Source: Candidatus Omnitrophota bacterium (GTDB lineage: Bacteria; Omnitrophota; Gorgyraeia; Gygaellales; Profunditerraquicolaceae). Taken from it: a stretch of DNA of 64,000 nt. Below, in pieces: positions 9,478 through 53,598 of the stretch; within the stretch, counting starts at the first letter, position 1, and each line of letters starts with the position of its first letter. A model generated the notes under the pieces. That model was not told where the DNA came from and made no database searches. It saw only the letters and a list, made by a program, of their open reading frames with translations. Both the position numbers and the translations under genes were made by a program. The DNA lies in NCBI GenBank assembly GCA_023247825.1, contig JAHFFR010000001.1:23009-87008 (forward strand), given 5' to 3'.

Positions 9478-9492
9478 TTCATTTACCTATCT

Positions 9493-10164: not shown

Positions 10165-10172
10165 TTAAATCT

Positions 10173-11878: not shown

Positions 11879-11901
11879 TTAATCTTCTTAAATTTTTAAT
11901 A

Positions 11902-12678
11902 CTACTGTCCAAAATATCCTCTTCCTTGCCCGCCATCAACAGGAATAATACTTCCAGTATTAAAAGAAGCTAATTCTGAACAAAGAAAAACCACAAAATT
12001 ACCAATTTCCTCTGGGCTTCCGAAACGGCCTATTCTTTGCCTCTCAGCTAAAAATCTCTTTACGTGTTTGGGATTACTTTTAGAAACTTGATCCCAATAG
12101 CCACCTTTTGTAAAAACAGCTCCCGGTAAAACAGCAGAAACAACTACACCATCAGGAGCAACTACTCCCCCAAAGCTCCTAGTATAAGCGGTCAAAGCGG
12201 CTTTCATGGCGCAATAAGTTACCGGGCCATGATTTTCCATAGCTGAGATAGAAGAGATATGAATTACCCTACCCCATTTATTTTTCTGAAGATAAGGAAC
12301 AATTAGGCTATTAATCTCAACTGCTACTTCAAAATTAAAACGATATACTCTTCTCCATTGCTGTATAGAACAAAACGGATCTTTAATGTCAAGGGTTCCT
12401 CCTAAATTATGCACAATGATCTCAGGAATCCCAAAACTTTTTCTTAATTTATTAAAAAGCAACCGCGGGGATTTTTCTTTCTCAAGATCAAGAACTACAG
12501 CAATATGGTTCTTGCTCCCGCCAGGCATTTTAGCGATTAAACTATTGAGATCGGCCTTAGACCTGGAAACAACAGCAATACGCGCGCCTTCATTTGCTAA
12601 ACCAAGCGCAATAACGTTTCCAATCCCCCTACCACTACCTGTTACTAAAGCTAACTTGCCCTTAATTCCAAGCTCCAT
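11902..12678 (-). CDS. Classical short-chain dehydrogenase/reductase (SDR)
   Basis: TGSGRGIGNVIA glycine-rich motif. 258 aa. Confidence 0.8.
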   Translation of the reverse strand: MELGIKGKLALVTGSGRGIGNVIALGLANEGARIAVVSRSKADLNSLIAKMPGGSKNHIAVVLDLEKEKSPRLLFNKLRKSFGIPEIIVHNLGGTLDIKDPFCSIQQWRRVYRFNFEVAVEINSLIVPYLQKNKWGRVIHISSISAMENHGPVTYCAMKAALTAYTRSFGGVVAPDGVVVSAVLPGAVFTKGGYWDQVSKSNPKHVKRFLAERQRIGRFGSPEEIGNFVVFLCSELASFNTGSIIPVDGGQGRGYFGQ

Positions 12679-12694
12679 CCCGCACCTCTTTTCA

Positions 12695-13897
12695 TTAAAT
12701 GTTGTGAAAAGGATAGATAATATTCTTCGGCCTAATAGATAAAAGTTTAGTCATAATTGGTTTCACATTGTCCACTGCAGTTATAAAAACATTTGAATTA
12801 CTTAGCACATCATTTTTGATTTTACCGGAATAACAAATTTGCACGGGCAAATTAACGTAATACTTTCCGTCTTTTTTTACATCATCATCCAATAGCGCTT
12901 TTAAAAAAGTAAAATCTGTTCCCAAATGGTAACCTAAAATCGGCAGCATCATTGCCGCCCCATATCCGTAAATGCCAGAATTGGATAGTTTCTTTAATAA
13001 CTGCATTACATTGTCCATCTGTTTATGAAAAATAGATACTCGTTCTCTAATTTCATTTTTCTGGTAATTAAATTTAAATATTCTTTTTTTGGACCTGCTC
13101 TTTTTAAAAGCCACTACCATCGCCCCCCAGTTATGATAATTTTTAGTCCAGGAAATTATTTCTGCTCCACTCATACTCAAAATACACTCAAAAGAAGCAA
13201 GACTAAAATACTGCAGATGCTCATGAAAAACCTGATCAAAACGATATCTTTCAATTAAAGTTTCAAAACAAGGTGTTTCAAAAATAAAAATGGTGTCCTC
13301 ATCTGCAAACTCCATTAATTTTCTAATAACAATTTCTGGTTCAAAGATGTGTTCGATTGCATGCCTGCAGAATACAATATCCGGCTTAGAAATTATATCT
13401 TTCTCAAATTCGACATCTTCAATCGTCTTACCTAAAACCCTTGTTCCATCAGATAAATTACCGGTGTTTTTTTGATTCCAGATAGGATCTATGCCTAAAC
13501 GCTTTCTTATAAAAGACGCTGCCTCATTCAACAAATACAGATCATTACATCCAACATCGATGCCATAATTCAAAATCTTTTTACCAATTAATGATTTTAA
13601 AAAATTCAATAAGAAGTTTGTTCCTTCTTTTGCGCTAGCACTTGCCGAGGTCCTAAAAGTATATTTATCAGAATCATACAATATAACCGGATTAACCTGA
13701 TGCAATAACTGGCCCTGTCCGCATTTCGGACACCATAATAATTTCTGATTAACCCCTTGAACAGGCAAACTTTGTTTTTTATTTGAAAAAAAACCTGTTA
13801 AAGGCAGATTTGGTAAATCTAAGATACTAACAAGATTACCATAACCGCAAATACTACAACCTTCCCTTGTTTTAACTATAATATTATTAAATTTCAT
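12695..13897 (-). CDS. C-methyltransferase-family protein (Zn-ribbon plus class I MTase plus C-MTase C-terminal domain), a TylC3-like NDP-sugar C-methyltransferase candidate
   Basis: N-terminal CxxC...CxxC motif (CSICGYGN...CPKCGQG) and motif I (IDVGCNDLYLL). A paralogue of 27383..28633. Confidence 0.6.
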   Translation of the reverse strand: MKFNNIIVKTREGCSICGYGNLVSILDLPNLPLTGFFSNKKQSLPVQGVNQKLLWCPKCGQGQLLHQVNPVILYDSDKYTFRTSASASAKEGTNFLLNFLKSLIGKKILNYGIDVGCNDLYLLNEAASFIRKRLGIDPIWNQKNTGNLSDGTRVLGKTIEDVEFEKDIISKPDIVFCRHAIEHIFEPEIVIRKLMEFADEDTIFIFETPCFETLIERYRFDQVFHEHLQYFSLASFECILSMSGAEIISWTKNYHNWGAMVVAFKKSRSKKRIFKFNYQKNEIRERVSIFHKQMDNVMQLLKKLSNSGIYGYGAAMMLPILGYHLGTDFTFLKALLDDDVKKDGKYYVNLPVQICYSGKIKNDVLSNSNVFITAVDNVKPIMTKLLSIRPKNIIYPFHNI

Positions 13898-13928
13898 AAA
13901 TGTTGTTTAGGTTTATTTAATTTCTAAA

Positions 13929-14126
13929 TTAAAATGGCCCCTTAAACCAGCCTCCCGGCACATCACTACCGTTACTAGAATCAGTGACGGCTTCCACGGG
14001 GACCCGAAACATAGCCGCGGCTATCCGAGTGATATCCACGGCTCGGGGATAATAGTGTTTCGCCAGCTCCCAGCTTGCTGGCGTCGGTAGATCCGGAAAC
14101 GCGACTCGTCGTGGAGCGCATTTCAA
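13929..14126 (-). pseudogene. Remnant encoding only the C-terminal ~65 aa of an E1-beta (ThDP enzyme) subunit
   Basis: VAFPDLPTPASWELAKHYYPRAVDI aligns with the C-terminus of the intact E1-beta at 15724..16779 (ITFPDVPTPTSPALAKYYYPRAVDI). The fragment is visibly more GC-rich than its surroundings. Confidence 0.6.
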
Positions 14127-14233
14127 GCTGTCGAGGCATTTTTCCGCTGCCAGCGCTTTCCTATATCGCTACCTATACCAAGAATACCAAGAATAAAAAC
14201 ATTTTTTGTGACTGTCTTCTTTCCGACCATATT

Positions 14234-15724
14234 CTATTTTCCTGAAGAAGGCATAATATTTTTGACCATGCTGTTTACGCCCAGATTTCGCCTGGTGTTC
14301 ATTCGCCAATCTTCTAATTCTGCCATCGTGATGCCGTTTATTCTAGCAACAGCCTTTTTTCTTTCTGGAGAAGAAAAATTTATCCTATCCCATTCGAACG
14401 AACGCAAAACCTCAAGCTCAAACGTTGTAAATTCTTTTGTTGATATAAGCCCTTTTCCATAACCTGAATATCTTGACATATTCTTAATGTAATCTTTTGG
14501 CAATAGGCCTTTGCGCACACATATATCCATCAACTCTGTTTTAGGCAACGGTGTCGCTATGTGAAAATTTACTATGTCTACGTCCAATTTTTCAGCAAAG
14601 GCAAATGTTTCGCGAATCTCATGCCAGGTTTCACCTGGAAAGCCTACGACGAAATTAGCAAGTATATTGAAACCCATGGACTTGGCAAGCTTAAGCGTCG
14701 AGGGGACGCTTTCCAGCTTTATAGGTTTTTTTATAATATTTTTAAGAACACGCTGATTGCCTGATTCTATTGAGACGGTTATAAAATTACATCCACTTTT
14801 ATACATAAGCTTCAGAATCTCTTCGTCAAGCATCCAGACGGTAACATTAACGCATTTCCAGGTCAGATCCTTATGGTTTCCCAAGATGCCTTTCATTATT
14901 TTTATAGCCCGGTCCCTGTCCACCAGGAAATGGTCATCCAAGAAAACCACCTCTCTGATACCCTGTTTATAGAGGCTATCGATTTCATTAAGTACGTTCT
15001 CCGCGCTCCTGAATCGCATTTTCTCGCCGCTCACCGTCTTACCGGCACAGAATATGCATCTGTAGGGGCAGCCCCTGGAAGTAATGGTAACAGCCGATGG
15101 ATAATTTCGCGCCAGTAGCCCCGGGGCATACTTGAATTTAATATTGCCGTAATCGCGCAGGGCGGTCTCGATAATAGACGAATAATCCGGAAATGGGACC
15201 TCGTCGAGATCGCTTACAAATTCCATTTTGTTTATAACCGGCTCAGCGCCCTGCCAATAAGCCAAGCCGCTGATATCGAAAGAATCTTTTGAGCCTCTGC
15301 GCAATTTTTCTATAAGAAGCGGGAAAGAACGTTCCCCTTCGCCCATGATCCAGTAGTCAACAGACTTATCCTTCATGGCCTCTTCTATCATTACCGTAGG
15401 GATCACGCCGCCAAAAACAATCACCGTTTTCGGAAGGTATTTCCGGATAAGCGCTATCATATGCCGGGTAACGCTAAAATATTCCGTGGAAACAGAGCTA
15501 ACCCCGACTAAATCGGGGTTGATCTTCTTTAGAAACTTTGCGGTCTCTCCCTCGGACAAGTTCTTAAAATTCGGGTCAAGCACTATAACTTCCTCCGCAA
15601 GGTCTTTAATTACGGCTTTTAACAAACATAGAGTATAGGGCGGAAATAGCCACGTCCTTTTGGAAAGCCATGCGTAATTAGGTTGCGTTAAAAGTATTTT
15701 TTCGATTTTTCTTCGTCGTATCAT
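14234..15724 (-). CDS. Cobalamin-binding radical SAM enzyme (class B)
   Basis: An N-terminal B12-binding-like domain followed by CPYRCIFCAG (CxxxCxxC). 496 aa. Confidence 0.85.
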   Translation of the reverse strand: MIRRRKIEKILLTQPNYAWLSKRTWLFPPYTLCLLKAVIKDLAEEVIVLDPNFKNLSEGETAKFLKKINPDLVGVSSVSTEYFSVTRHMIALIRKYLPKTVIVFGGVIPTVMIEEAMKDKSVDYWIMGEGERSFPLLIEKLRRGSKDSFDISGLAYWQGAEPVINKMEFVSDLDEVPFPDYSSIIETALRDYGNIKFKYAPGLLARNYPSAVTITSRGCPYRCIFCAGKTVSGEKMRFRSAENVLNEIDSLYKQGIREVVFLDDHFLVDRDRAIKIMKGILGNHKDLTWKCVNVTVWMLDEEILKLMYKSGCNFITVSIESGNQRVLKNIIKKPIKLESVPSTLKLAKSMGFNILANFVVGFPGETWHEIRETFAFAEKLDVDIVNFHIATPLPKTELMDICVRKGLLPKDYIKNMSRYSGYGKGLISTKEFTTFELEVLRSFEWDRINFSSPERKKAVARINGITMAELEDWRMNTRRNLGVNSMVKNIMPSSGK

Positions 15725-16779
15725 TAAAAAGGACCTGTGAATGTTTTATCAGGTATATCCAGCGGAACATTAGTAGTCATTTCTCCTTCTTCCTCTAATT
15801 TTCTAAAGAGATTAAACATAGGTCTTATGCTATTAACAATATCTACTGCTCTAGGATAATAATATTTTGCCAAAGCCGGGCTTGTAGGTGTCGGTACATC
15901 GGGAAATGTAATACGTTGAGGTTTAGCCTTAAATATCCCATGTCCTTTTTCTGCCACCAAAGCGATAACCTCTGCGGCAATGCTACAACTACGCCAAACC
16001 CCATCCACTACAACCAAGCGACCAGTTTTTGTTACTGATTTTACTATGGATTCCTCATCTAAAGGCCTGATTGTGCGCAGGTCTATAACTTCTGCATCTA
16101 TATCGTCTTCCCTTAGCATCTCTGATGCGCGCATTGCCTCCAAAACCATGTATGACGAAGAAATAATAGTAATATCCTTGCCTTCCCTGGTTATTTTGGC
16201 TTTATGCAAAGGCTCTCTATACATCTTTTCAGGAACATAGTCTGATATGCCATAAAGCCAACGATGTTCGATGAAAATCACAGGATTATCATCTTCAACC
16301 GCCGAAATCAATAGTCCTTTAGCATCATAAGCGGTAACAGGCATAACCACCTTAAGGCCGGGAATATGAGCGAATAATGACTGCAGGCTTTGTGAATGCT
16401 GAGGCCCCTGTCCCCATCCACGTCCGATAAGCATACGGATTACCAACGGAACTTTCATTTTTCCACCGAACATATAATGCCATTTAGCGGCATTATTGAT
16501 GATTTGATCTAAAGACAAGATCATAAAATCAACACGCTGATGCGTTAAGATCGGACGCATTCCCATTAAGCAGGAGCCTATTGCTACTCCGGTCATAGCA
16601 TTTTCAGCAACAGGCATATCCATAAGTCTATTGCCATATTTTTTTTCAAGCCCAAGAGTAGTCCCGAATACTCCTTTCGGGTCGGTTACGCCTAATCCCA
16701 TGATATAAACCGACTTGTCCTTAGCCAAACATTGATCGGTTGCTTCTAAAATAGCCTGTGCGTAAGTGAGTTTTCTCAT
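15724..16779 (-). CDS. ThDP-dependent dehydrogenase E1 component, beta subunit-like
   Basis: Transketolase-like pyrimidine-binding and C-terminal domains. 351 aa. Forms a pair with the alpha subunit upstream. Confidence 0.85.
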   Translation of the reverse strand: MRKLTYAQAILEATDQCLAKDKSVYIMGLGVTDPKGVFGTTLGLEKKYGNRLMDMPVAENAMTGVAIGSCLMGMRPILTHQRVDFMILSLDQIINNAAKWHYMFGGKMKVPLVIRMLIGRGWGQGPQHSQSLQSLFAHIPGLKVVMPVTAYDAKGLLISAVEDDNPVIFIEHRWLYGISDYVPEKMYREPLHKAKITREGKDITIISSSYMVLEAMRASEMLREDDIDAEVIDLRTIRPLDEESIVKSVTKTGRLVVVDGVWRSCSIAAEVIALVAEKGHGIFKAKPQRITFPDVPTPTSPALAKYYYPRAVDIVNSIRPMFNLFRKLEEEGEMTTNVPLDIPDKTFTGPF

Positions 16780-16790
16780 TTTATCGGTTA

Positions 16791-17762
16791 TTAAGCGTAA
16801 AGGTCAGAAAAAATCTCTTTCCTCGCGGGAAAGGGAGAATCTTTCGCAAAATTTACTGCTTCATTTATTTCCTTCTCGATTGTTTTCTTAATACACTCGG
16901 TCTGCTCCGTATTAAGTATTTTCTGCCGGAACAACTTTTTCTCAAAATTATCCAACGGGCACCTCTTATACCAATGTCTGAATTCATTTTCGCTTCTATA
17001 GCCAAGATCATTGTCGAAATTATGCCCGCAGTGTTCACGGTATCTGTAGGTATCGAACTGTAAAAATGAAGGCCCTTGGCCTTGCCTTGCGAGTTTGATT
17101 GCCCTTTCTGCTTTCTGGTAAACAGCGGCTACGTTATTGCCGTCGCACTTTTCAGCACGCATTCCGTAGCCATTGGCAATTTTCAAATTATCTCTTTTTT
17201 TCGGCTGACGCACTAATAACGGTGAATATACCGAATACAGGTTATTTTCGCATACAAAAACTACCGGCAATTTTTTTAATGAAGCGAAGTTTAAACTTTC
17301 AGAGAATACGCCTTCTTCAGTAGCGGCATCCCCGAAAAAAGCAGCAGTTACTTTTTTCTCTTTCTTCATAGCCGCTCCAAACGCAACACCTACGGCTACC
17401 GGAATCACTCCAGCTACTATGGGCGTAGAACCAAGAAAATTAACGCTTAAATCCACTAAATGCATAGAACCGCCCTTACCCTTTGAGCACCCCGAAGCCT
17501 TACCATAGATTTCAGCCATCATTGCCTTTAAATCTCCACCCTTGGCTAAAAAATGCCCATGGCTTCTATGATTACTTAATACATAGTCATCCTTCTTCAG
17601 GTTCGCGCATACCCCTGCAGCTACCCCCTCCTGCCCTATGCAAATGTGCACCGGACAGCGCATCTCCTGTTCAGGATATAATTCACAAATTTTTTCCTCT
17701 ACCATACGAATCCGCAACATTTGATAATATAATGAAAGGTATACTTTTTTATTTATTTTCAT
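16791..17762 (-). CDS. ThDP-dependent dehydrogenase E1 component, alpha subunit-like
   Basis: GKGGSMHL motif and the E1-alpha ThDP-binding fold. 323 aa. Confidence 0.85.
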   Translation of the reverse strand: MKINKKVYLSLYYQMLRIRMVEEKICELYPEQEMRCPVHICIGQEGVAAGVCANLKKDDYVLSNHRSHGHFLAKGGDLKAMMAEIYGKASGCSKGKGGSMHLVDLSVNFLGSTPIVAGVIPVAVGVAFGAAMKKEKKVTAAFFGDAATEEGVFSESLNFASLKKLPVVFVCENNLYSVYSPLLVRQPKKRDNLKIANGYGMRAEKCDGNNVAAVYQKAERAIKLARQGQGPSFLQFDTYRYREHCGHNFDNDLGYRSENEFRHWYKRCPLDNFEKKLFRQKILNTEQTECIKKTIEKEINEAVNFAKDSPFPARKEIFSDLYA

Positions 17763-17767
17763 AGATA

Positions 17768-18706
17768 TTAAAGCTTAAGCGTCTTCATTGTTTTTATATT
17801 ATACCATCGGTCTTCATCCTTTAGATGGCCTGCTTGGAATTCATTAACAAGTTCTTTTATCGCATCGTCAACGCTGTACTTCTGCCTAAACCCCGCGGCA
17901 CGCAACTTATCTGAACAAAGCCTGTAAGAACGAGGGTCATTTGATTCGCTAATAATAATTTCTGCCGGCACTTGAGTAACGATCTTCTTTGCTATATCTA
18001 AGATAGATATATTCTCAAAACCAGCGTTATAGATACCTTCTATTTTATCTCCCATTTTGAGAAGATATGAATATACCGCAACCATATCTTTAATATGTAT
18101 ATTTGGACGTACCTGGCTCCCTCCTAAAACCGTAATTTTACGGTTAGCTAAAGCCTGAACGGTCAGCATATTTACCGAGAGGTCAAGCCTCATCCTTGGA
18201 GAATAACCACAAACCGTGGCCGGCCTGACACATTGAATTAAAATTTTATCCCGGTAGCTTATAAGCACTCTTTCGCTTATCATTTTAGTTTTGTTATAGT
18301 CGGAAATCGGAACCAGAGAAAGTTCTTCCGTCACATCCGATTCTTCTTTGACCCCATATACACTTCCTGAGCTTGCATATATAAACTGCTTCACCTTGTT
18401 ACTGATAGCGCGCTCAACCAAGCGCATAGTTGCTAAAACATTAACATCCCAGCTAAGTTGAGAATCCAATTCACTACAAGGATCGTTAGCCACGTTGGCC
18501 AAATGTATAACGACGTCTATCGCCTGCATGGGTATTTTTTCAACATTACGCACATCTTCCCGGATAACTCTCAGGTTCTTGTGTTCCTTGAGAAAATTAC
18601 CAAACCACATTATATCGACTACGGTAACATGATGCCCATCACCCAGAAGAGTCTCAGTAAGAATAGTCCCGATATAACCACAGCCGCCCAGCACAAGTAT
18701 CTTCAT
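17768..18706 (-). CDS. NAD-dependent epimerase/dehydratase (extended SDR)
   Basis: MKILVLGGCGYIG and YNKTK (YxxxK) motifs. Confidence 0.8.
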   Translation of the reverse strand: MKILVLGGCGYIGTILTETLLGDGHHVTVVDIMWFGNFLKEHKNLRVIREDVRNVEKIPMQAIDVVIHLANVANDPCSELDSQLSWDVNVLATMRLVERAISNKVKQFIYASSGSVYGVKEESDVTEELSLVPISDYNKTKMISERVLISYRDKILIQCVRPATVCGYSPRMRLDLSVNMLTVQALANRKITVLGGSQVRPNIHIKDMVAVYSYLLKMGDKIEGIYNAGFENISILDIAKKIVTQVPAEIIISESNDPRSYRLCSDKLRAAGFRQKYSVDDAIKELVNEFQAGHLKDEDRWYNIKTMKTLKL

Positions 18707-18723
18707 ATGTTTACCATGTCTAC

Positions 18724-20265
18724 TTAGAAACTAAGCAGAGCCATCCCGCCTTTTAATAACTTATTCTTTTTAATGGAATCGGCATTGCCGATAATGCGAA
18801 CTGCTTGTGCCCCTGCCAATTGCCCCATAAAAGTAACCAGGTCTATCGGCAGGCCTTTTGCAGCCGCCAAAGAAGTCACAGAGCAAAAGGCGTCCCCTGC
18901 ACCCACGGTATCAACTACAGATTGCTCAAAAGGCATACACTCACATTCAGGTTCGCCGGATTTTACGCCGATTGTATCCGTGGCGCCGCGAGTTAGCCAG
19001 CCATAACGTGCGAACAACTTGTGTTGTAACTTTTTTAATTCTTCGGAAAAATTTATATTTCGTCTGCCGCAAGCCAAAGTTAGCTCTGTTTCATCTAAAG
19101 AAAATGAATCCGCGCGATGATATTTTTTATCGATTATATTAAAACCATAGTTATAACTGTTGGTCTGGCAATTAAGAGCTAGAAACGGCGACTTTTTCTG
19201 GACAAGTTCGCGAACTTTCTCCTGCATAAGGCCATGGCCAAAATCCATCACCATAACCAAATCATAATCTTTTATGCAACTATTTATAACACCGCAAAGC
19301 GAGGTTTGAATCTTTTCGTCTAAATACTGCTCTTTTATTATGTTAATAGCGAATAGCTTGGATAATTCTTTCCCTTCAGAAGGCGGCTCAACAAAACGCT
19401 GTTTGATAATAGTAGTAAAATCAGGGCTGCGGATTATTCCATCTTCATTAGGGCTTACATATTTAGCTAAAGCCGGACCTACCCATTCCTCCGTACCTAC
19501 CAAACTAACAAGTTTAACATTAGAGGTGAACTGTTTTACGTGGCGAAAAACCGCCAAGGCGCCGCCTGCCTGCGTTTCTTCGGCCAAAAATCTTGTGGAA
19601 ATAATGCGGTTTTTAGACGTAAGACCCTGCACTTTAACCGAAGAATATCGATCAAAAATGACATCCCCAATAATTAAAACTTTTAAATTCCTAAAACTAT
19701 CCACTATCTCCCTGAATTGGTTCGGCGTGTATTTTGCCGCCAGTTTCTTACAGAATTCTTTCATTGGTTTAGGGTGAACTTCAAAATGATTATTAAGTAG
19801 CTTTGTTGAACTAAAAACAACTGAACCTACATAATGCACCCGGCCGCCTAAGCGCTCCACAGCTTGAATATCATCGTGAATATTACCGGTTACGTCAACC
19901 TGAGGGTCTTCATACTCTTTTCCTTTACAATATATATGCGGACGGATACACTCTATCGCTTCGCGGGCGGCAGGGAAAGGTACTACTACCACATAATCGA
20001 CATATTCTAAAGATGACAGATATTTAACTCTGATCTCATCATTAAAATACGGCCGGCCCGGGCCTTTATTCACATATTCCTCTGCGGTAATAGTTACTAC
20101 TAAGATATCGCCCATAGCCTTAGCTTCTTCAAAATGAACAATGTGGCCGGGGTGAAGAAGATCAAATGTTCCGTGGCATTGAACGATTTTTTTGCCCTCG
20201 TTTTTAAGTTTAGCGAAAACACGCGGAGCATCCTGAAAAGAAAGGCCCTTCTTAGAACTAAGCAT
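18724..20265 (-). CDS. Bifunctional sugar-1-phosphate nucleotidyltransferase (cytidylyltransferase-like, N-terminal) / PfkB-family sugar kinase (C-terminal); HldE/RfaE-like but with inverted domain order
   Basis: N-terminal CHGTFDLLHPGHIVHF (HxGH motif). C-terminal DTVGAGDAFCS (ribokinase/PfkB GAGD motif). 513 aa. Confidence 0.75.
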   Translation of the reverse strand: MLSSKKGLSFQDAPRVFAKLKNEGKKIVQCHGTFDLLHPGHIVHFEEAKAMGDILVVTITAEEYVNKGPGRPYFNDEIRVKYLSSLEYVDYVVVVPFPAAREAIECIRPHIYCKGKEYEDPQVDVTGNIHDDIQAVERLGGRVHYVGSVVFSSTKLLNNHFEVHPKPMKEFCKKLAAKYTPNQFREIVDSFRNLKVLIIGDVIFDRYSSVKVQGLTSKNRIISTRFLAEETQAGGALAVFRHVKQFTSNVKLVSLVGTEEWVGPALAKYVSPNEDGIIRSPDFTTIIKQRFVEPPSEGKELSKLFAINIIKEQYLDEKIQTSLCGVINSCIKDYDLVMVMDFGHGLMQEKVRELVQKKSPFLALNCQTNSYNYGFNIIDKKYHRADSFSLDETELTLACGRRNINFSEELKKLQHKLFARYGWLTRGATDTIGVKSGEPECECMPFEQSVVDTVGAGDAFCSVTSLAAAKGLPIDLVTFMGQLAGAQAVRIIGNADSIKKNKLLKGGMALLSF

Positions 20266-20277
20266 TGCTACTTACTC

Positions 20278-21288
20278 CTATTCTTTATGAACATATTCAA
20301 ACGGCTGCTTTTTTAACTCTTTGAGATTATCATCTACCCAATTTATTGTTTCCCGTATGCCATCTTCCAGCTTGATACGATCTGTCCAACCTAATTCATC
20401 GCGCAACTTACTGCTATCCAATAAATATGCCGCATCCTTACCCGGATTCTCACCCACTATTTCAACAAGTTTTGTAAAATTTGCTTGCATCATTTTGCAA
20501 ATCGATTCTACTAAGACCTTTATAGAGATATATGAATCTGTAGATATATGATATATTTCCCCCACAGTCCCTTTTTGCGCGATTTTTAGAGTAGCTGCCG
20601 CCATATCCCGAATATGAATAAAAGAACGCACTGAATGCCCCCCGCCACGTAATTGCAGTTTCTTGCCAAGTTTTATATAAAGAATAGTTCGAGGTATTAC
20701 CCTATAGAGTTGTTGTCCTGGGCCATAGACATTGGCTGCGCGCGTAAAAACTACTGGAAATTTATAACGATTAAAGAATGTCTTCAGGTGCAGATCACAA
20801 GCTGCTCTTGAAGCAGCATAAGGAGTGCTGGGATTAAATAACATTGACTCGGTTACTTTCCCGGCACAATTACCATATACCTCCGGAGTTGACACATGGA
20901 CATATTTTTTCAGAAAATTGAACTTTCTTATTTTATCATGAAGCTTTACGTTACCGACGACATTAGTCTGATACCAATGTTCCGGATGCTCCCAGCTTTG
21001 AGCTACCATAGCCTGCGCGGCAAAATTTACAATGTAATCCGGGCAGAACTTCTTAATGCTACCGGCTATCCTATCTGTATCACAATTTATATCAAGCTTT
21101 TCAAACCTGAATGAGCCTGATTTATTTATATCATTCCACTTATACGGCAAAAACATGGCAGGCGACTCATGAGAACGACTTATACCTAATATTTCCATTC
21201 CTAAAGCAAGGCAATGTGCCGCAAAACTTGCCCCGGAAAAAGAATTGCTTCCTATTACAGCTATCTTCTCGCGCAGCTTAATCATCAA
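20278..21288 (-). CDS. NDP-sugar 4,6-dehydratase/epimerase-family extended SDR
   Basis: 336 aa. The usual YxxxK motif reads PYAASRAACD, with Arg at the Lys position. Confidence 0.65.
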   Translation of the reverse strand: MMIKLREKIAVIGSNSFSGASFAAHCLALGMEILGISRSHESPAMFLPYKWNDINKSGSFRFEKLDINCDTDRIAGSIKKFCPDYIVNFAAQAMVAQSWEHPEHWYQTNVVGNVKLHDKIRKFNFLKKYVHVSTPEVYGNCAGKVTESMLFNPSTPYAASRAACDLHLKTFFNRYKFPVVFTRAANVYGPGQQLYRVIPRTILYIKLGKKLQLRGGGHSVRSFIHIRDMAAATLKIAQKGTVGEIYHISTDSYISIKVLVESICKMMQANFTKLVEIVGENPGKDAAYLLDSSKLRDELGWTDRIKLEDGIRETINWVDDNLKELKKQPFEYVHKE

Positions 21289-21847
21289 GCATTCCTTTCT
21301 TAAGCCACTGCACCAACATATGCCCGACTATAAGCTGCAGATCCTCCGCTATTTGCATATCATTAACAGAAAAATGTATAGGGATATCCACCAAGCTTAA
21401 ACATTTACCTCCGTCAAATCCTAGGATCGCGCAAGTTAAAATACCATTATTTTTGGCACTATCTATTGCCTTCAAAATATTTGGAGAATTACCGCTTCCG
21501 GAAAGAACAATAAGAAGATCGCCTTTCCTCCCCAATCGTTCCAATTGGAATGAAAAAATATTCTCATATCCGGCATCATTAGATAAGCAGGTCAAAACAG
21601 CCTGATTGGCCGGCAATGCTGTAACTTTTATCCCATTGCCTTTCCATTTTAACTGAAGACACAGTAGGTCATTAGCTATATGCATCGCATTGGTAGCACT
21701 CCCACCGTTACCGCACAAAAATACATGCCGATCTTCTTTCTGAAAAGACAGGATCTTTTGGGCAAGCTGCGCTACCGGCGACCAGTCAAAAGATTGCATA
21801 CAATTAATTAGACGGTCCTGGTAATTTTTAATGGTTTCTTTTGGCAT
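21278..21847 (-). CDS. gmhA: Sedoheptulose-7-phosphate isomerase (SIS domain)
   Basis: SIS motif FLCGNGGSATNAMHIANDL. 189 aa. Confidence 0.8.
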   Translation of the reverse strand: MPKETIKNYQDRLINCMQSFDWSPVAQLAQKILSFQKEDRHVFLCGNGGSATNAMHIANDLLCLQLKWKGNGIKVTALPANQAVLTCLSNDAGYENIFSFQLERLGRKGDLLIVLSGSGNSPNILKAIDSAKNNGILTCAILGFDGGKCLSLVDIPIHFSVNDMQIAEDLQLIVGHMLVQWLKKGMLDD

Positions 21848-23012
21848 ATATTATCCTCTTTTTAAAAAAATCCTCCATAATTTTCTTCAAAAACCTTAAT
21901 TTCTCCATATTTACAAATTGGTTATTCCCAATATAAAAAGCATTGTTATGAAGAAAATCCGCATTTTTAAAGTTTTCAGGGTCATAATAAGTTTTTAGAA
22001 ACGGTTGCAACAATAAATTGCCGCTAATAAGAGGCCTAGATTCTATCCCATGCTTTGTAATAAACTTTTGAAATTTCCTCTTTTTTATCTGATCCTTGAA
22101 AAAAAATGGCAGGCTAAAGGATGAAACACCTTTTGACTTTAACAAAATTAACTCATCGTATTTCCTGCACATTTCCATAAAATCAGCATAGTTTGAATTT
22201 CGAATTCCTATATAATTATCTATTCTTTCTAACTGGCTCAGGCCTATTTCGGCGTGTAATTCGGTATTGCGCATGTTAAATCCATCCGTTAAAAATAAGA
22301 ACCTGAAATCGATGTTTTTATTTCTTTTTCTTATCTCTCTATGGTACTTAAGGGGTAACTCGCGGGCCAATCCATGAGAACGTTTTAATAGTAAAATTTT
22401 ATAAAGCTCCTCATCATCGGTACAAATCATACCTCCCTCAACCGTAGTCATATGATGGCCCCAATAAAAACTGAACGTGCTGCCGATTCCAAAGCTCCCC
22501 ACTTTTTGGCTACCTATCGTTGCCCCCTGAGATTCACAACAATCTTCCAAAATAGCAATAGAACGATTACCAACAATTTTATTTATTAAAAGCATGTTTG
22601 CAGGTATTCCAATAAGGTGAGTCACAAAAATGGCCCGCGTATTTTTGGTTATTGATTTTCCCAATCTTTTGTAATCAAAGGATAAATCTTTAAGATTCAC
22701 ATCTACAAATACAGGTTTAAGTCCATTTTGAATTACGGGACCAATATTCGTAGGCCAGGTAACGGCAGGCACGATGATTTCATCATCTGCTGTCCATTTA
22801 TTTAATTCTTTCAACGCGTTAATTAAAAGGAAATTTGCTGAACTGCCTGAATTGACATAGACGCAATTTTTGCATTTCTGCCATTGGGAGAATTTCTTCT
22901 CAAACCTGCTTACAGTCTTAAACTGAGTAAAACGCGATGTGCTTTTAATAAATGCAATCAGCAAGTCTAAATCGCGTCTATTTAACACATCTTCTTGTAA
23001 TTTCCAAAACAT
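21828..23012 (-). CDS. DegT/DnrJ/EryC1-family PLP enzyme with His in place of the Schiff-base Lys; ColD/E1-type sugar 3-dehydratase candidate
   Basis: FSFYWGHHMTTVEGGMICT where canonical aminotransferases have ...SFHxxKxxTxGEGG. 394 aa. Confidence 0.65.
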   Translation of the reverse strand: MFWKLQEDVLNRRDLDLLIAFIKSTSRFTQFKTVSRFEKKFSQWQKCKNCVYVNSGSSANFLLINALKELNKWTADDEIIVPAVTWPTNIGPVIQNGLKPVFVDVNLKDLSFDYKRLGKSITKNTRAIFVTHLIGIPANMLLINKIVGNRSIAILEDCCESQGATIGSQKVGSFGIGSTFSFYWGHHMTTVEGGMICTDDEELYKILLLKRSHGLARELPLKYHREIRKRNKNIDFRFLFLTDGFNMRNTELHAEIGLSQLERIDNYIGIRNSNYADFMEMCRKYDELILLKSKGVSSFSLPFFFKDQIKKRKFQKFITKHGIESRPLISGNLLLQPFLKTYYDPENFKNADFLHNNAFYIGNNQFVNMEKLRFLKKIMEDFFKKRIIYAKRNH

Positions 23013-27382: not shown

Positions 27383-28633
27383 CTATGATTCTTTGCCCGC
27401 CTTTACAACTTCCAGATTAGGCAGCGGAAAAACCAAGCTGAATCGCCTGTACCTCTCTTGCGCTAAGAAGAACTTCCTGAAATGCCAGGGTAAAACAATA
27501 AGATAATCCGGCTTCCCGGCAAGCAATTCGTCCTCCGGGATGATTGGTATCCACGACCCCGGGGTATAACACCCATATTTCTCGACGTTGATCTCGCCAA
27601 TAAACGGCACATCTTTGCCTGTTAAACCGCAATATTGTAACAGTACATTTCCTTTTGTAGAGGCTCCGAGCGCCGCCACCGTTTTGCCTTCAGAACGAAC
27701 GGCTTTGAGAAACTTAAGCAAATCATTTTTTGCTTTTTCCGCTGTTTTGGCGAAATCCTGATAAGGCTTAAGCCCACTTAAGCCTCTCTCTTGTTCCAAA
27801 GAAAGAATTTTTTGTACTGAAGGGGCGATAGTTAAATCGTCATTTGCCTTTGAAACCATAACCGAAAAACTGCCTCCATTAACATCGTTAAACTCAACAT
27901 CTATAATTCGCAAGCCCACCTTATCCGCCATCCATTTAATCTGGCGCAGAGCATAGAATTCAAGATGTTCATGACAGACGGTGTCGTAGGAATTAGCCTC
28001 AAGCATAGCCGGCATATAGCTTTGTTCAAAAACCCAAACCCCGTTGTCTGCGAGCACATCATACACTTGCCTCATAAAATCTATTGGGTCTTCCAAATCG
28101 TAGAACATAGAGAACGAAGTTATTATTTTCGCCTTTTGCCCGGGAAAACGTTCTTTTAACAATGTGGAAGAAAATAATTCCGGGATCAATTGAATGTGCG
28201 GAGGATAATAGTTATGAAATTTGGCACCTGTGGGATCGATTCCGACAAGCATTAAACCGGAAGGCGGATAGGCCCGCAGTGTAGTGCTGTCATTGCTGCC
28301 GATATCGATAACGAGATCGCCTTTACGCAATTCGACCTGCCCAAGGATTTTTTTTACCTTGCCATGCAAATGTTCCACCATGCTCGCGTTAAGTCCGGAG
28401 CGATAGCCATAGTTTTCGCTGTACATCTCCCCCAAATCGTAGGAATGCTCAAGCTGCAACAGTCCGCAAACCTCATCGCCCCCCATGCATTTTACAAGAC
28501 ACAGAGGCCCAATCGTAACCTTCGTTCCTTTTTCACACGGGAATACGCCGGTCAACATCTGCTCTCCCAAATCGAGCACTCGCTCCAAATTCGCATTATT
28601 GCATATCCTGCATTTATCGACTTTTCTATACAT
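27383..28633 (-). CDS. TylC3-type NDP-hexose C-methyltransferase. The likely true start is the internal Met (MYRKVDKC...), forming a TAATG junction with the upstream gene
   Basis: Zn-ribbon CRICNN...C, motif I VIDIGSNDSTTL, and a C-MTase C-terminal domain. The annotated ORF 27383..28705 carries a 24-codon N-terminal extension that overlaps the upstream gene. Confidence 0.75.
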   Translation of the reverse strand: MYRKVDKCRICNNANLERVLDLGEQMLTGVFPCEKGTKVTIGPLCLVKCMGGDEVCGLLQLEHSYDLGEMYSENYGYRSGLNASMVEHLHGKVKKILGQVELRKGDLVIDIGSNDSTTLRAYPPSGLMLVGIDPTGAKFHNYYPPHIQLIPELFSSTLLKERFPGQKAKIITSFSMFYDLEDPIDFMRQVYDVLADNGVWVFEQSYMPAMLEANSYDTVCHEHLEFYALRQIKWMADKVGLRIIDVEFNDVNGGSFSVMVSKANDDLTIAPSVQKILSLEQERGLSGLKPYQDFAKTAEKAKNDLLKFLKAVRSEGKTVAALGASTKGNVLLQYCGLTGKDVPFIGEINVEKYGCYTPGSWIPIIPEDELLAGKPDYLIVLPWHFRKFFLAQERYRRFSLVFPLPNLEVVKAGKES

Positions 28634-29589
28634 TATCTTAATTTCTGAAGTTCGGCATCCACCATCATCTTCACCATCTCGTCGAATTTTACCTCTGGCG
28701 CCCAATCCAGCTGCTTTATCGTCTTCTCTGGATTTCCCACCAGTTCTACCGGCTCAGCCGGACGGTACGCATTAGCGTCTTCCCGCACGTAATCGCGATA
28801 ATCCAAACCCAGATGCTTAAAAGCGATCTCACACAGATCCCTTACCGAATGAGTCTTACCGGTAGCCACCACATAATCTTCCGCATGCGGCTGCTGCAGC
28901 ATAAGCCACATAGCCCGCACATAATCCCCCGCAAATCCCCAATCCCTTCGCGCATCAAGATTACCAAGACGAAGCTCATTGGCCAGCCCCAGCTTGATCT
29001 TCGCTGACTGATAGGCGATCTTTCTCGTAACGAAATTTAATCCACGGCGCGGGCTCTCGTGATTAAACAAGATTGCCGAACACACAAACAGCCCGTAATA
29101 CTGACGGTAAATTCGAATCATTGAGTGCGCATAAAGTTTGGCAGCGCCATAGGGACTGCGCGGCTTAAATGGCGTTTCTACCGACTGCGGACTTCCAACT
29201 GCATCGCCAAACATTTCGCTGCTCGACGCCTGACAGAAATGAATACCGGAATCGACCTCGCTGATCGCCTTCAGCATGCGCGCGACTGCGAGCCCATTTA
29301 TCTCACCGATTCCAACAGGGTCATCGAACATACCTTCCCCAGATGAACAAGCTGCATAGTTGTATACTTCTACAGGCTTATTGCGCAAAAAAATATCCAC
29401 TATCTCTTTCTGATCCAACATGTCCCACTCAATCAACTCAACCCTGCTCATAAGTGAAGCAGACATGTTATCAGAAGTTTTATGTACATCCCTCACGGTA
29501 CCAACAACACGATATCCCTTAGCAAGCAAAAGCTCTGCCAGATACGAACCATCCTGACCGGCAATACCGGTGACTAAAGCCGTCTTCAT
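28633..29589 (-). CDS. Short Gmd-family enzyme (GDP-4-keto-6-deoxy-sugar reductase, Rmd/DmhB-like, or dehydratase)
   Basis: MKTALVTGIAGQDGSYLAELLLAKGY, YGAAK and FNHESPRRG motifs. At 318 aa it is shorter than a canonical Gmd. Confidence 0.75.
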   Translation of the reverse strand: MKTALVTGIAGQDGSYLAELLLAKGYRVVGTVRDVHKTSDNMSASLMSRVELIEWDMLDQKEIVDIFLRNKPVEVYNYAACSSGEGMFDDPVGIGEINGLAVARMLKAISEVDSGIHFCQASSSEMFGDAVGSPQSVETPFKPRSPYGAAKLYAHSMIRIYRQYYGLFVCSAILFNHESPRRGLNFVTRKIAYQSAKIKLGLANELRLGNLDARRDWGFAGDYVRAMWLMLQQPHAEDYVVATGKTHSVRDLCEIAFKHLGLDYRDYVREDANAYRPAEPVELVGNPEKTIKQLDWAPEVKFDEMVKMMVDAELQKLR

Positions 29590-29624
29590 CGGTTATCAGC
29601 CCTCCGGCATAAGTTTATCTTTCA

Positions 29625-30722
29625 TTAAGCAAAAAAACTTTCATATAACGAATAGTGTTCATCCGCGATTTGCTGCCATTCATCCCGATCAATATCAGCA
29701 TCATATCCACGCCGTGTCCCCGCATACACTGCAAGAGCCGACTTCATCTCTTGGATATCATCAACTTTCGCAAAGTAGATATTACGTTTTTTATCATAAC
29801 CATTTTGGGTCATCGATGTCGTTATTACAAACGCCCCATTCAATACCGCCCCATGGATTGAGCTGTTCCATTCGCCTCCGCCGTCGCGGAAAGGCAGGAT
29901 CACGGCATCCGTTACTGCCAGTAACGCCGCAGCATCGGCAGCGGAAAGAAAACCGGTGACCGTCATTTTTTCTATCCATGGCTCAGTAGAAGCGCGCTGG
30001 GCTATCTTACGGAAATAATCCCCTTTTTCATCAACCTCCCCGGCTATGATGATCTGGTCTGTGGCAGATTCGGCAATATCAAATAAAAATTCTACCCCCT
30101 TATGGGGATATACGAAACCAAAGAAAACGATCAACCGTTTCTGTTTTCTTAAATATTGTTTTTTTAACATCTCCTTTTCATGCTCTCCCAGATCAACGCG
30201 GGGAACACACGATGCGTTTCGTATGAGTAGAACTTTTTTTCCCCATAAAGCCCACCGCAGCAAAGGATGCAGGATCCTTTCTCTATATTGAGGACGAACA
30301 ACCACCAATTTACCGGGAATAATAGATATCAAAAAAAGCATCGGCGCGTTTCGCCTGCTGTATCCTTCGTGCCAGGTCTGCACAACTTTTTTTCTCATCA
30401 GAAAGGAGACAATCGGCAACAACCACGGCAACAGTCCATCTCCATAACCTTGCGTCGGATATTGTATATGCACAATATCGGGTAACCATTGCCGGATGGT
30501 CTTTACGATCTTCAACACTTCAACAAAATTCCACTTTTTTACAACAGGAAAAATTTCGACCCCGTCAGCATTATCAACCTTTGCTTTGGCAATACTTGTA
30601 AGCACGCCAACGCGAATACCCCTATCAATAGCAAGCGCTTTCGCCAAGCTATAACTATAGTCGCCAATCCCGCATCTCATCGGCGGATAGGAACCTGTGA
30701 TTAACAATACCCGTATAATCAT
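29625..30722 (-). CDS. Glycosyltransferase family 4
   Basis: Starts MIIRVLLITGSYPPMRCGIGDYS. Shows the C-terminal GT-B pattern. 365 aa. Confidence 0.75.
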   Translation of the reverse strand: MIIRVLLITGSYPPMRCGIGDYSYSLAKALAIDRGIRVGVLTSIAKAKVDNADGVEIFPVVKKWNFVEVLKIVKTIRQWLPDIVHIQYPTQGYGDGLLPWLLPIVSFLMRKKVVQTWHEGYSRRNAPMLFLISIIPGKLVVVRPQYRERILHPLLRWALWGKKVLLIRNASCVPRVDLGEHEKEMLKKQYLRKQKRLIVFFGFVYPHKGVEFLFDIAESATDQIIIAGEVDEKGDYFRKIAQRASTEPWIEKMTVTGFLSAADAAALLAVTDAVILPFRDGGGEWNSSIHGAVLNGAFVITTSMTQNGYDKKRNIYFAKVDDIQEMKSALAVYAGTRRGYDADIDRDEWQQIADEHYSLYESFFA

Positions 30723-31627
30723 ACAGACTTTCTAAGCGCCAACCATGCGAAGGTATATTGCTTTCCCCAAAAATTAATCGGTTTATTTTTACCGTCATAC
30801 ATCATCTCACCTACGGGAAATAAGCTATATCCTGCTGCTTCAGCAATAAACCCGATAATTTCATCTCTGGAAAAAATCTTCCAATCCATTCCAAAAAAAT
30901 CGATGCCTGCTGTATTGATCTTCTCCGACCAGTAATCGAACGACGCTATAAAGTAGCCGCCCGGCTTTAAAAGGCGCGACATCTCTTTCAGCAACGAATG
31001 ACCGCAAAAACCATGCTCAATTACGGAGATCGCTGTAATCGCCTGGAAGGATGCGTCGTTAAACTTTGTGCGCATAAAATCAGCGACTACATACCGTATA
31101 AAATCTTGATGCGGCATTTCCCGCAGATTTGGATTCAAGTCCACCCCGGTTAAATTTGAATAGCCCAATGCATGCAACGCTACAATCATTTCAGAAGCAT
31201 AAGAACCAATATCAAGTATAGGTTCCTTCCTTTGTACGTACCTCTCAAGAAAATTCAAGGTAGAAAGCACATCCCAGCTCTTTAACATATCTCCTATCGC
31301 CATTCCGCGCGTAAAGCCTGATCTTCTCATTAAAGAGCATAAAGGAGATTCGACAAAAGAGATCCCCCTTTTTACCATCTCTTGACGAGACTTACTTATT
31401 TGTAATTTATTCTGCAAAACTTTCATGGCCATTGTATTTAAAAAGCATATCCTGATACTCAAAACCAACCCGTCATCTCCAACTGCAGTGACTTTGGGGG
31501 TTTTAGCATGTACCACAAAATTCATATCCTTAATTATTTTTAAAAGTCCATCGCAACTCGACCCATTAGACTCAAGCCATCCGGAGTTAAACTCGCACAT
31601 AAGGTATTTAACATGCCTCTTTTGCAA
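30719..31627 (-). CDS. Class I SAM-dependent methyltransferase (Methyltransf_11-like). The annotated start overlaps the upstream gene by 88 bp; the true start is probably an internal Met
   Basis: LDIGSYASEM...VDLNP motifs. 302 aa as drawn. Confidence 0.6.
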   Translation of the reverse strand: MQKRHVKYLMCEFNSGWLESNGSSCDGLLKIIKDMNFVVHAKTPKVTAVGDDGLVLSIRICFLNTMAMKVLQNKLQISKSRQEMVKRGISFVESPLCSLMRRSGFTRGMAIGDMLKSWDVLSTLNFLERYVQRKEPILDIGSYASEMIVALHALGYSNLTGVDLNPNLREMPHQDFIRYVVADFMRTKFNDASFQAITAISVIEHGFCGHSLLKEMSRLLKPGGYFIASFDYWSEKINTAGIDFFGMDWKIFSRDEIIGFIAEAAGYSLFPVGEMMYDGKNKPINFWGKQYTFAWLALRKSV

Positions 31628-32232
31628 ATATTTAGATATACCTCGAAAAACATTCGGCTCAAAACTTCAACATCTACTTTCATGAGATTAATTACAGACA
31701 GAGATTGCACGGACGGATGTGAATCTAAGCGGCAAACCTGGACATTAACCGGAATTAATGATTTGTTGCTTGGAACCAAAGACGGAGAATGTAAATGAGC
31801 CTGATTTGGCAGGTGCAGATCCAGCCACTCTTCTTTATCCCCGGCCGCGCATTGAAAAGCATCAACATGGGTGATACGATTGCTCTTAAGGACAGTAACA
31901 AGTTTTTTGTACGCATATGGACTTGGCTCAAATGCCAGTACATGCCCCTTACTACCAACCAAACTCGCTGCCAGAGTTGTATAATACTCAACGTTTGCAC
32001 CCACATCCAAAAAATTACCGCCTGGTTTAAGTATTTCCTTAACCCAGCGGGATTGGACAGGTTCATATCTGCCAAGATATATTTGCCTTTGTATGGATTC
32101 GCCAACATCAAACTCCATCCGATAGCCGTTACATAACCCGTAGATTGATTTCGGCCTTAATCGGACGAAGAACAATAAAACGCTCTGTGGAAATTTCTGG
32201 AAAAGCTTCTGGAAAAATATATACATATTCAT
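31540..32232 (-). CDS. FkbM-family methyltransferase
   Basis: FLDVGANVEYYT...LAFEPSP, typical of Methyltransf_21. 230 aa. Confidence 0.65.
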   Translation of the reverse strand: MNMYIFFQKLFQKFPQSVLLFFVRLRPKSIYGLCNGYRMEFDVGESIQRQIYLGRYEPVQSRWVKEILKPGGNFLDVGANVEYYTTLAASLVGSKGHVLAFEPSPYAYKKLVTVLKSNRITHVDAFQCAAGDKEEWLDLHLPNQAHLHSPSLVPSNKSLIPVNVQVCRLDSHPSVQSLSVINLMKVDVEVLSRMFFEVYLNICKRGMLNTLCASLTPDGLSLMGRVAMDF

Positions 32233-32260
32233 TCGTACACCTTGCTATGTATTCACTTTT

Positions 32261-45571: not shown

Positions 45572-45578
45572 TTGTCCT

Positions 45579-46190: not shown

Positions 46191-46191
46191 T

Positions 46192-46282: not shown

Positions 46283-46311
46283 GTAAAATTGGGAGTTTCG
46301 CAACAGCCCCC

Positions 46312-53596: not shown

Positions 53597-53598
53597 TA

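Follow-up and report, generated by a model that had tools for sequence, protein, structure and literature searches.

According to our analysis, the open reading frame (ORF) at positions 21828 to 23012 of a 64,000-nucleotide stretch of Candidatus Omnitrophota contig JAHFFR010000001.1 (assembly GCA_023247825.1; this whole stretch is called the window below) is predicted, from its sequence and its modeled structure, to encode a nucleotide-sugar 3-dehydratase of the ColD type, which is independent of Fe-S clusters, and not of the E1 type. The gene has moved by about 23 kb inside one large same-strand polysaccharide cluster, and the ancestral cassette from which it came is a better guide to its substrate than its new neighbors. 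Because this cassette combines the gene set known from Campylobacter with thiamine-dependent enzymes, we favor GDP-6-deoxy-4-keto-heptose (GDP-6-deoxy-4-keto-D-lyxo-heptose) as the probable substrate, with a probability of roughly 0.5. The coordinates of the genes discussed are collected in Table 1.

The protein belongs to the DegT/DnrJ/EryC1 family (PF01041, E 5.6e-64), whose aminotransferases are recognized by an internal-aldimine Lys after strand f; here, instead, this position is occupied by His186, within the motif FSFYWGHHMTTVEGG. An earlier note on this DNA had proposed precisely this replacement of the Schiff-base Lys, to be checked by alignment with ColD, AscC/DdhC, and perosamine synthase, and the alignments bear it out. 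When the protein was aligned by phmmer with the PDB chains, the residue in the column of His186 was His for wild-type ColD (2gms), Asn for the H188N variant (3b8x), Lys for the H188K variant (2r0t), and the Lys of Asn-Lys for the S187N/H188K variant (3gr9). A three-way MAFFT alignment of the dehydratase with ColD and E1 likewise equates His186 with ColD His188 and E1 His220; as a check of the E1 numbering, counting along the chain in this alignment gives the published H220, C193, C251, C253, and C261. As an aminotransferase control we used 21 DegT ORFs, paralogs from related loci carrying the gmhA-type heptose cassette described below, and 20 of them have Lys at the His186 column, the exception being a partial His-type ORF in locus L110, 26% identical and located about 8 kb upstream. 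All of the 120 best homologs of the dehydratase (60 to 85% identity) keep F180, S181, W184, G185, H186, H187, E192, G193, and G194, so that the swap is a property of the family and no sequencing accident. Nor does the alignment place another active-site Lys nearby, an objection which the earlier note had raised against its own proposal: the sole Lys invariant in the family, K210 (119 of 120 homologs), lies 24 residues past the canonical loop and corresponds to Ile in ColD. Furthermore, D157, E160, S181, R217, N246, and R326, all of them family invariant, align to ColD D159, E162, S183, R219, N248 (N248'), and R331, which we take to be the cofactor- and pyrophosphate-binding residues in the structures of Cook and Holden. 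GDP-perosamine synthase and other DegT aminotransferases share the fold (TM approximately 0.82) and the GDP-sugar family, but they keep the Schiff-base Lys (K186 in perosamine synthase) where the window protein has His. The His swap is described as the defining mark of 3-dehydratases (PMC8987622), and its reading as the signature of a ColD/E1-type sugar 3-dehydratase is supported by these alignments.

Of the two types joined in that signature by the earlier note, only the ColD half is retained. In a phmmer search of all PDB sequences, the best match of the dehydratase was Escherichia coli ColD (2gms, E 9.6e-72, 245 bits), the second was E1 (3bcx, 152 bits), and perosamine synthase and other aminotransferases reached at most 107 bits; the dehydratase shares 36% identity with ColD and 28% with E1. 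An AlphaFold2 model of the protein (mean predicted local distance difference test score of 84.9, predicted TM score of 0.84) was submitted to Foldseek, and the twelve best matches were all ColD chains (2gms, TM 0.86, E 1.4e-32), with E1 and GDP-perosamine synthase ranking behind them. Like ColD/WbdK, the GDP-4-keto-6-deoxy-D-mannose 3-dehydratase of E. coli O55, the window protein has His at the Lys position, an HH doublet, a similar length, and no Fe-S loop, while it differs from ColD in Gly185, which replaces Ser187 before the His, in extra Cys residues conserved in its subfamily, and in its genomic partners, which are thiamine enzymes and a short-chain dehydrogenase/reductase (SDR) instead of just Gmd and ColC. 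With E1/AscC/DdhC/RfbH (CDP-6-deoxy-L-threo-D-glycero-4-hexulose 3-dehydrase; 3bcx, 3bb8) it shares the equivalent of His220, the predicted first half-reaction, and the top NCBIfam model, RfbH NF011936 (231.8 bits versus a cutoff of 423), but it lacks three of the four [2Fe-2S] Cys ligands, the N-terminal extension, and the E3 partner.

These missing parts speak against an E1/SpnQ-like mode of action, in which the protein would assemble a noncanonical Fe-S cluster on its conserved Cys residues and rely on an external reductase, or would act mainly as a SpnQ-like transaminase. Such a mode could appeal to four to six Cys residues conserved in the subfamily, to the match between C159 and the E1 ligand C193, and to the JGI label CDP-6-deoxy-D-xylo-4-hexulose-3-dehydrase carried by many homologs. 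E1 and SpnQ, however, depend on a four-Cys [2Fe-2S] cluster and on a reductase, whereas ColD is cluster free and recycles pyridoxamine 5'-phosphate (PMP) with glutamate (PMC8987622). The E1 motif C-X57-C-X1-C-X7-C is absent from the MAFFT alignment of the dehydratase: the eight residues inserted in E1 that include C251 and C253 are missing, and the columns of C257 and C261 hold residues other than Cys, so that C159 is the only Cys of the E1 cluster left, and ColD has an equivalent of this residue too, which binds no cluster. A partner reductase, which the earlier note had advised looking for, did not turn up either: no annotated ORF of the 64-kb window, in which six ORFs have no family match, and none of the conserved neighbors in 45 related loci encodes an E3-type, ferredoxin, or FNR-type reductase. 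Since sequence and fold are also nearer to ColD, we deem this mode very improbable. The Cys residues themselves are well conserved in the 120 homologs (C159 in 100%, C282 in 98%, C197 in 97%, and C47 in 90%), and the set C47, C50, C158, C159, C197, and C282 is kept at 78 to 100% (88 to 100% if C50 is set aside) despite the absent E1 loop.

More than 6,500 database proteins match the dehydratase at an E value of 1e-20 or less. An identical protein is present on several metagenome contigs, and the closest named relative (85% identity) is from a Candidatus Omnitrophota metagenome-assembled genome (MAG). When one genome per species was considered, we obtained 41 loci encoding relatives at 51 to 85% identity, with members in Verrucomicrobiota, Acidobacteriota, Desulfobacterota, Patescibacteria, Planctomycetota, Nitrospinota, Actinomycetota, and a Methanomicrobiales archaeon. 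Neighborhood counts were derived by clustering all the ORFs of the related loci (40 or 45, as stated). The recurrent core lies mostly on the same strand, within 4 kb upstream of the ColD-like gene. Its most constant member, usually directly upstream, is an SDR designated cluster 1 (37 of 45 loci); a thiamine diphosphate enzyme was found in 30 of 40 loci, a GDP-fucose-synthase-like (Fcl-like) SDR in 29 of 45, and true Gmd in 8 of 45, and a Nudix protein resembling GDP-mannose mannosyl hydrolase in 8 of 40.

In the window, the ColD-like gene is not where its closest relatives have it. The region from 57.5 to 39.4 kb is collinear, at 70 to 81% nucleotide identity, with three Omnitrophota loci (L006, L122, and L123), whose ColD-like proteins are the closest relatives of the window protein (76 to 85% identity). 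The shared order comprises a heptose-type dehydratase, Wzm, Wzt, the N- and C-terminal halves of a split transketolase, the cluster 1 SDR, an Fcl-like SDR, a 311-residue protein, a TylF methyltransferase, glycosyltransferases, the E1 alpha and E1 beta subunits of a thiamine enzyme, a 328-residue protein, a FabG-like protein, a second Fcl-like SDR, an RmlC-like protein, and a TIM-barrel protein. In all three loci the ColD-like gene stands between a glycosyltransferase and E1 alpha, with the E1 alpha/beta pair directly downstream in L123 and L006, and in the window this slot is filled by a damaged copy of another gene of the cassette (Table 1). At its present site, the block of homology to the dehydratase family (23023 to 21851) is gene sized and abuts, within about 15 nucleotides, the start of homology to seven independent copies of a gmhA-type cassette (21815 to 21865), which sets the junction of both blocks at 21850 ± 15; the last eight codons of the gene are foreign to the family and are modeled with low confidence. 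The synteny, the filled slot, and the gene-sized block with its abutting junction together demonstrate that the gene was relocated. The fragment in the slot corresponds to about residues 144 to 330 of the heptose-type dehydratase, with 49 to 61% identity to it, and has the appearance of a rearrangement scar.

The composition of the ancestral cassette is what brings Campylobacter jejuni into the picture. Ghosh, Xiang, and Raushel (Biochemistry 2023, PMC10440746) characterized four enzymes of serotypes HS:5 and HS:11, which make GDP-3,6-dideoxyheptoses by means of a C3-dehydratase homologous to ColD (62 to 67% identity), and an earlier report had already described a 3,6-dideoxyheptose from the HS:5 capsule. 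The sugar class that the earlier note held to be undescribed is hence already known, as is the enzyme type, and careful homology annotation would give the same call; what the window adds is an indication that GDP-heptose deoxygenation, a pathway so far characterized only in Campylobacter, is present in an uncultured freshwater phylum. The 3,6-dideoxy sugar on a heptose scaffold proposed in that note is plausible in outline, but the best evidence for it is the heptose-type dehydratase which heads the ancestral cassette, and not the neighboring gmhA or the Gmd that was cited. This SDR, with S-S-E and YxxxK motifs, matches 7us5, the structure of the C. jejuni GDP-heptose 4,6-dehydratase, far above Rmd (188 bits) and any Gmd (at most 144 bits), so the cluster does contain a putative heptose 4,6-dehydratase, and in L006 the cassette is headed by an ortholog with 87% identity. 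The guanylyltransferase encoded directly upstream scores 163 bits with the ManC-type and 146 bits with the HddC model of NCBIfam (HddC cutoff, 300), both below cutoff, and its best PDB matches are HddC of the Yersinia pseudotuberculosis 6-deoxy-manno-heptose pathway. For the HddA-like kinase, the best PDB matches are heptose kinases (3k85, 4n3o, and WcbL 4usk), and a GmhA-like protein is encoded in the same cluster. Between the RmlC-like protein and the HS:5 C5-epimerase the identity is 35%, and the PDB matches of the former are even (approximately 113 bits) between dTDP-linked RmlC and the C. jejuni GDP-heptose 3- and 3,5-epimerases. Similarly, the three Fcl-like SDRs (232, 160, and 152 bits with the NCBIfam Fcl model, all below the cutoff of 500) are 25 to 30% identical to the HS:5/HS:11 C4-reductases, GDP-fucose enzymes being equally similar.

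The window therewith holds homologs of hddC, hddA, gmhA, the heptose 4,6-dehydratase, the cupin epimerase, and the Fcl-like reductases, around an enzyme with the same predicted reaction as in the HS:5/HS:11 pathway. The HS:5 C3-dehydratase, whose sequence is given in the supplement, carries FSTFFSHHMATMEGG, the same active-site signature, and is 35% identical to the window protein; it differs in belonging to the ColD clade proper, whereas the window enzyme is placed in a separate subfamily of mostly uncultured lineages. A GDP linkage is supported by gene context, namely, by the Gmd and Fcl-like neighbors counted above and by the guanylyltransferase at the head of the window cassette, and the nearest solved folds in Foldseek are GDP-sugar enzymes. 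E. coli ColD and the Campylobacter enzyme illustrate that users of hexose and heptose can be close kin; the window enzyme may accept both substrates.

Several observations weigh against a ColD-type enzyme acting on a GDP-heptose. The identity to the characterized enzymes (ColD and the HS:5 C3-dehydratase) is only 35 to 36%, no NCBIfam equivalog is reached by the dehydratase, and C47, C159, C197, and C282 are conserved in the subfamily without explanation. The gene now lies outside the ancestral cassette. None of the HddC-, HddA-, and GmhA-like proteins reaches its curated cutoff, and GmhB was not found. Across the 45 subfamily loci, GmhA, HldE-like, and HddC-like genes do not occur at all and an HddA-like gene occurs once, so that outside the Omnitrophota clade Gmd is far commoner near the subfamily than heptose genes are. 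Moreover, two Gmd enzymes, one of them canonical (566 bits), are encoded in the same cluster of the window.

The last points are those on which a hexose alternative would be built, that is, the same ColD-type enzyme acting on GDP-4-keto-6-deoxy-D-mannose supplied by Gmd and yielding a 3,6-dideoxyhexose, either colitose/tyvelose-like after reduction by an Fcl-like SDR or C4 branched and yersiniose-like after thiamine-dependent branching. In its favor, relatives at 74 and 72% identity are encoded in two compact cassettes (L121 and L124) which consist of a true Gmd (514 and 500 bits; cutoff, 415), the two transketolase halves, an SDR, the ColD-like gene, and an Fcl-like gene. When private substitutions signaling a changed substrate were sought against the relatives that remained in place (P0002 and P0003), none was found at the family-conserved positions of the window protein. 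However, the Gmd genes of the window, including the Gmd that the earlier note cited, belong to a separate module that looks self-sufficient, with a C-methyltransferase and O-methyltransferases, and in the closest clade (76 to 85% identity) the cassette has a heptose-type enzyme and not Gmd as its 4,6-dehydratase. We had at one stage read the substrate purely as a GDP-mannose-derived hexose from the Gmd-headed cassettes, and revised this because of the heptose-type 4,6-dehydratase. The hexose alternative is thus less likely than the heptose reading, though it is its main rival, and Gmd is left as a second-choice supplier. The separate module (27383 to 33349, minus strand), headed by the canonical Gmd, also contains an FkbM-type and another methyltransferase, a second, short Gmd resembling that of Pseudomonas aeruginosa (28633 to 29589, 334 bits to 1rpn), and a TylC3-type C-methyltransferase (27383 to 28705), and looks like a route to an evalose- or virenose-like 6-deoxyhexose that bears C- and O-methyl groups.

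The genes which now adjoin the ColD-like gene form a second, distinct heptose-type cassette that spans 8416 to 21847 on the minus strand. Its first gene encodes a GmhA-like isomerase (TIGR00441, 123 bits versus a cutoff of 209; PDB GmhA 1x94, E 1.3e-27) that keeps the GNGGS, NAMH, SNDxGY, and SGSGNS motifs; it is followed by an RmlB-like SDR and an HldE-like fusion (Table 1), and the remainder comprises an SDR, an E1 alpha/beta pair, a B12-radical S-adenosylmethionine (SAM) protein, an MT13-type methyltransferase, FabG, a split transketolase, a methyltransferase, and a zinc-dependent alcohol dehydrogenase. The core of this cassette recurs, at 55 to 88% identity, in 71 metagenome and 3 MAG loci, the latter including Elusimicrobia and Opitutus MAGs, and always together with an E1 pair or a split transketolase. 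Conceivably the relocated gene serves this cassette and deoxygenates a 6-deoxy-4-keto-heptose that is not GDP linked and is probably ADP- or CDP-beta-linked. The overlap of 20 nucleotides with gmhA and the sharp junction would fit such a role, and Lys-type DegT enzymes in other versions of the cassette suggest that a keto-heptose within reach of the DegT fold is made there. On the other side, a close relative of the dehydratase is found in none of the 71 metagenome and none of the 3 MAG loci with this cassette, and the cassette is found in none of the 41 genome loci of the subfamily; among the 21 DegT ORFs of the control, the Lys is kept in all but the partial one of L110. The window protein shares 85% identity with relatives in GDP-type contexts and lacks private changes at conserved sites, whereas another nucleotide and anomer would demand changes in its sequence, and the SDR of the cassette has Pro for the catalytic Asp of RmlB. 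We therefore demoted the gmhA/RmlB-like/HldE-like neighborhood as the pathway of the dehydratase, the synteny being that of a relocation, and regard service to this cassette as quite unlikely; the adjacency to gmhA is secondary.

The gmhA-type cassette shows variants of its own. Six loci (L048, L069, L094, L102, L108, and L117) carry paired genes for Lys-type DegT aminotransferases in the space between the SDR and the HldE-like gene, which implies that the pathway also exists in amino-deoxy-heptose versions. Two further variants, in an Opitutus MAG (L049, 17684 to 19542) and an Elusimicrobia MAG (L047, 15346 to 17121), carry an acetaldehyde dehydrogenase with an HMGL-type aldolase (ErwJ/ErwI-like, as in the erwiniose cluster) or a thiamine enzyme of the YerE/acetolactate synthase type, and this hints at long-chain keto-acid donors for heptose branching. 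B12-binding radical SAM proteins are encoded at 34249 to 35616 and at 14234 to 15724 of the same polysaccharide cluster, and similar genes near the subfamily in other phyla (L004, L005, and L023); they could methylate unactivated sugar carbons. A combination of heptose with B12-radical SAM methylation leading to erwiniose or caryophyllose was considered and rejected, since the literature derives both sugars from CDP-3,6-dideoxy-4-keto-glucose and long keto-acid donors (PMC9306805).

Returning to the ColD-like subfamily and its GDP-linked context, the thiamine enzymes deserve particular attention. In the 30 loci that have one, which include Omnitrophota, Verrucomicrobiota, Acidobacteriota, Patescibacteria, and a Methanomicrobiales archaeon, the enzyme is a split transketolase (15 of 45 loci), an E1 alpha/beta pair, an acetolactate-synthase/YerE-like protein, or a short E1-like pair. 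That one class of thiamine enzyme takes the position of another is, we think, an argument for functional coupling, and the gene neighborhoods suggest C-branching downstream of the dehydratase. Known or proposed precedents for the carbon branching of keto-sugars exist for each of the three main classes (PMC9306805, PMC12247030): YerE-like enzymes in yersiniose and erwiniose, alpha-KADH2 pairs in aldgamycin and kibdelomycin, and split transketolases in miharamycin, the last a class represented so far by only 13 Streptomyces sequences (2025 review). As in the yersiniose and erwiniose pathways (E1/E3 with YerE/ErwE and YerF; PMC9306805, PMC12247030), a 3-dehydratase is genomically coupled to a thiamine enzyme, and acetolactate-synthase/YerE-like, E1 alpha/beta, and split transketolase classes are all found beside the window subfamily; unlike in those pathways, the dehydratase is predicted to be ColD type and probably GDP linked, not E1 type and CDP linked, and branching is suggested by gene neighborhood only. 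The Campylobacter clusters as PMC10440746 describes them, in contrast to the window, include no thiamine-dependent enzymes. Tentatively, then, the job of the subfamily could be to make the ketone acceptor for thiamine-dependent C-branching on GDP-sugars, and the product in the window could be a C4-acyl-branched 3,6-dideoxy-heptose. If so, a yersiniose-type branch on a heptose would constitute an undescribed sugar type, and sugar branching by split transketolases would extend well beyond the 13 Streptomyces sequences. We think that the value of a follow-up lies in this subfamily-wide coupling and in the second, uncharacterized heptose cassette next door: the link between ColD-like and thiamine enzymes of three or four classes is widespread and unstudied, and could be mined for new branched deoxysugars and ketone-accepting carboligases.

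By analogy with ColD, from which the mechanism is taken, and with cofactor cycle, nucleotide, scaffold, and downstream steps as predicted, the pathway in the window may be pictured as follows. GDP-heptose would be supplied via the HddC-, HddA-, and GmhA-like enzymes and converted by the heptose-type dehydratase to GDP-6-deoxy-4-keto-D-lyxo-heptose. In the ColD-like enzyme, L-glutamate would turn pyridoxal 5'-phosphate (PLP) into PMP with release of alpha-ketoglutarate, and PMP would form a ketimine at the C4 keto group of the GDP-4-keto-6-deoxy sugar. His186 would then take the C4' proton, the 3-OH would be expelled, and the sugar-ene aldimine would be hydrolyzed to PLP and an enamine, whose tautomerization and hydrolysis would give the GDP-4-keto-3,6-dideoxy sugar and ammonia, the product being presumably GDP-3,6-dideoxy-4-keto-heptose, in line with the HS:5 and HS:11 pathway of C. 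jejuni. Epimerization and reduction by the RmlC-like protein and the Fcl-like SDRs could follow, and/or attack of a thiamine-bound acyl anion equivalent (from the split transketolase or the E1 alpha/beta pair) on the C4 ketone, with an ABC-transporter-dependent surface polysaccharide as the likely end point.

Table 1. Genes and sites discussed in the text, in window coordinates
Feature	Coordinates	Strand	Remarks
ColD-type PLP/PMP sugar 3-dehydratase gene (predicted)	21828-23012	-	394 residues, ATG start, PF01041
Active-site motif FSFYWGHHMTTVEGG	22431-22475	-	Residues 180-194 of the dehydratase
His186 codon, CAT	22455-22457	-	First His of the motif; replaces the Schiff-base Lys
Vacated ancestral slot	45572-46311	-	Truncated, frameshifted copy of the dehydratase gene at 56501-57514
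GDP-D-glycero-D-manno-heptose 4,6-dehydratase-like SDR	56501-57514	-	372 bits, E 3e-110 to 7us5
Sugar-1-phosphate guanylyltransferase, HddC/ManC-like	57514-58263	-	Directly upstream of the heptose-type dehydratase
GHMP kinase, HddA-like (heptose-7-phosphate kinase family)	37401-38399	-	NCBIfam HddA, 150 bits (cutoff, 600)
Split transketolase, candidate C-branching enzyme	52715-54360	-	N-terminal half at 53599-54360 and C-terminal half at 52715-53596; in synteny with L006, L122, and L123
Cluster 1 SDR, candidate branch reductase or dehydratase	51670-52722	-	T-S-E and YxxxK motifs
E1 alpha/beta thiamine pair, candidate C2-branching enzyme	43575-45571	-	Alpha, 44612-45571; beta, 43575-44615
RmlC-like cupin epimerase	40315-40830	-	TIGR01221, 148 bits
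GDP-fucose-synthase-like SDR, candidate C4-reductase	50747-51685	-	Paralogs at 40848-41831 and 38396-39394
Canonical Gmd, alternative substrate supplier	32261-33349	-	TIGR01472, 566.5 bits (cutoff, 415)
GmhA-like sedoheptulose-7-phosphate isomerase	21278-21847	-	20-nucleotide overlap of its start with the 3' end of the dehydratase gene
RmlB-like SDR	20278-21288	-	STPEVYG: Pro for the catalytic Asp of RmlB
HldE-like fusion, domains reversed	18724-20265	-	N-terminal cytidylyltransferase fold, C-terminal PfkB kinase

Toward its flanks the window contains a fragment of an AbiEii toxin, an AAA_14/DUF4143 ATPase, a PLD-like protein, and an initiating sugar transferase (Bac_transf), as well as a genuine RmlB, which scores above its cutoff with 404 bits, together with an RmlD-like gene (listed together: 58983 to 59459, 3407 to 4723, 1536 to 2987, 909 to 1472, and 61692 to 63523).

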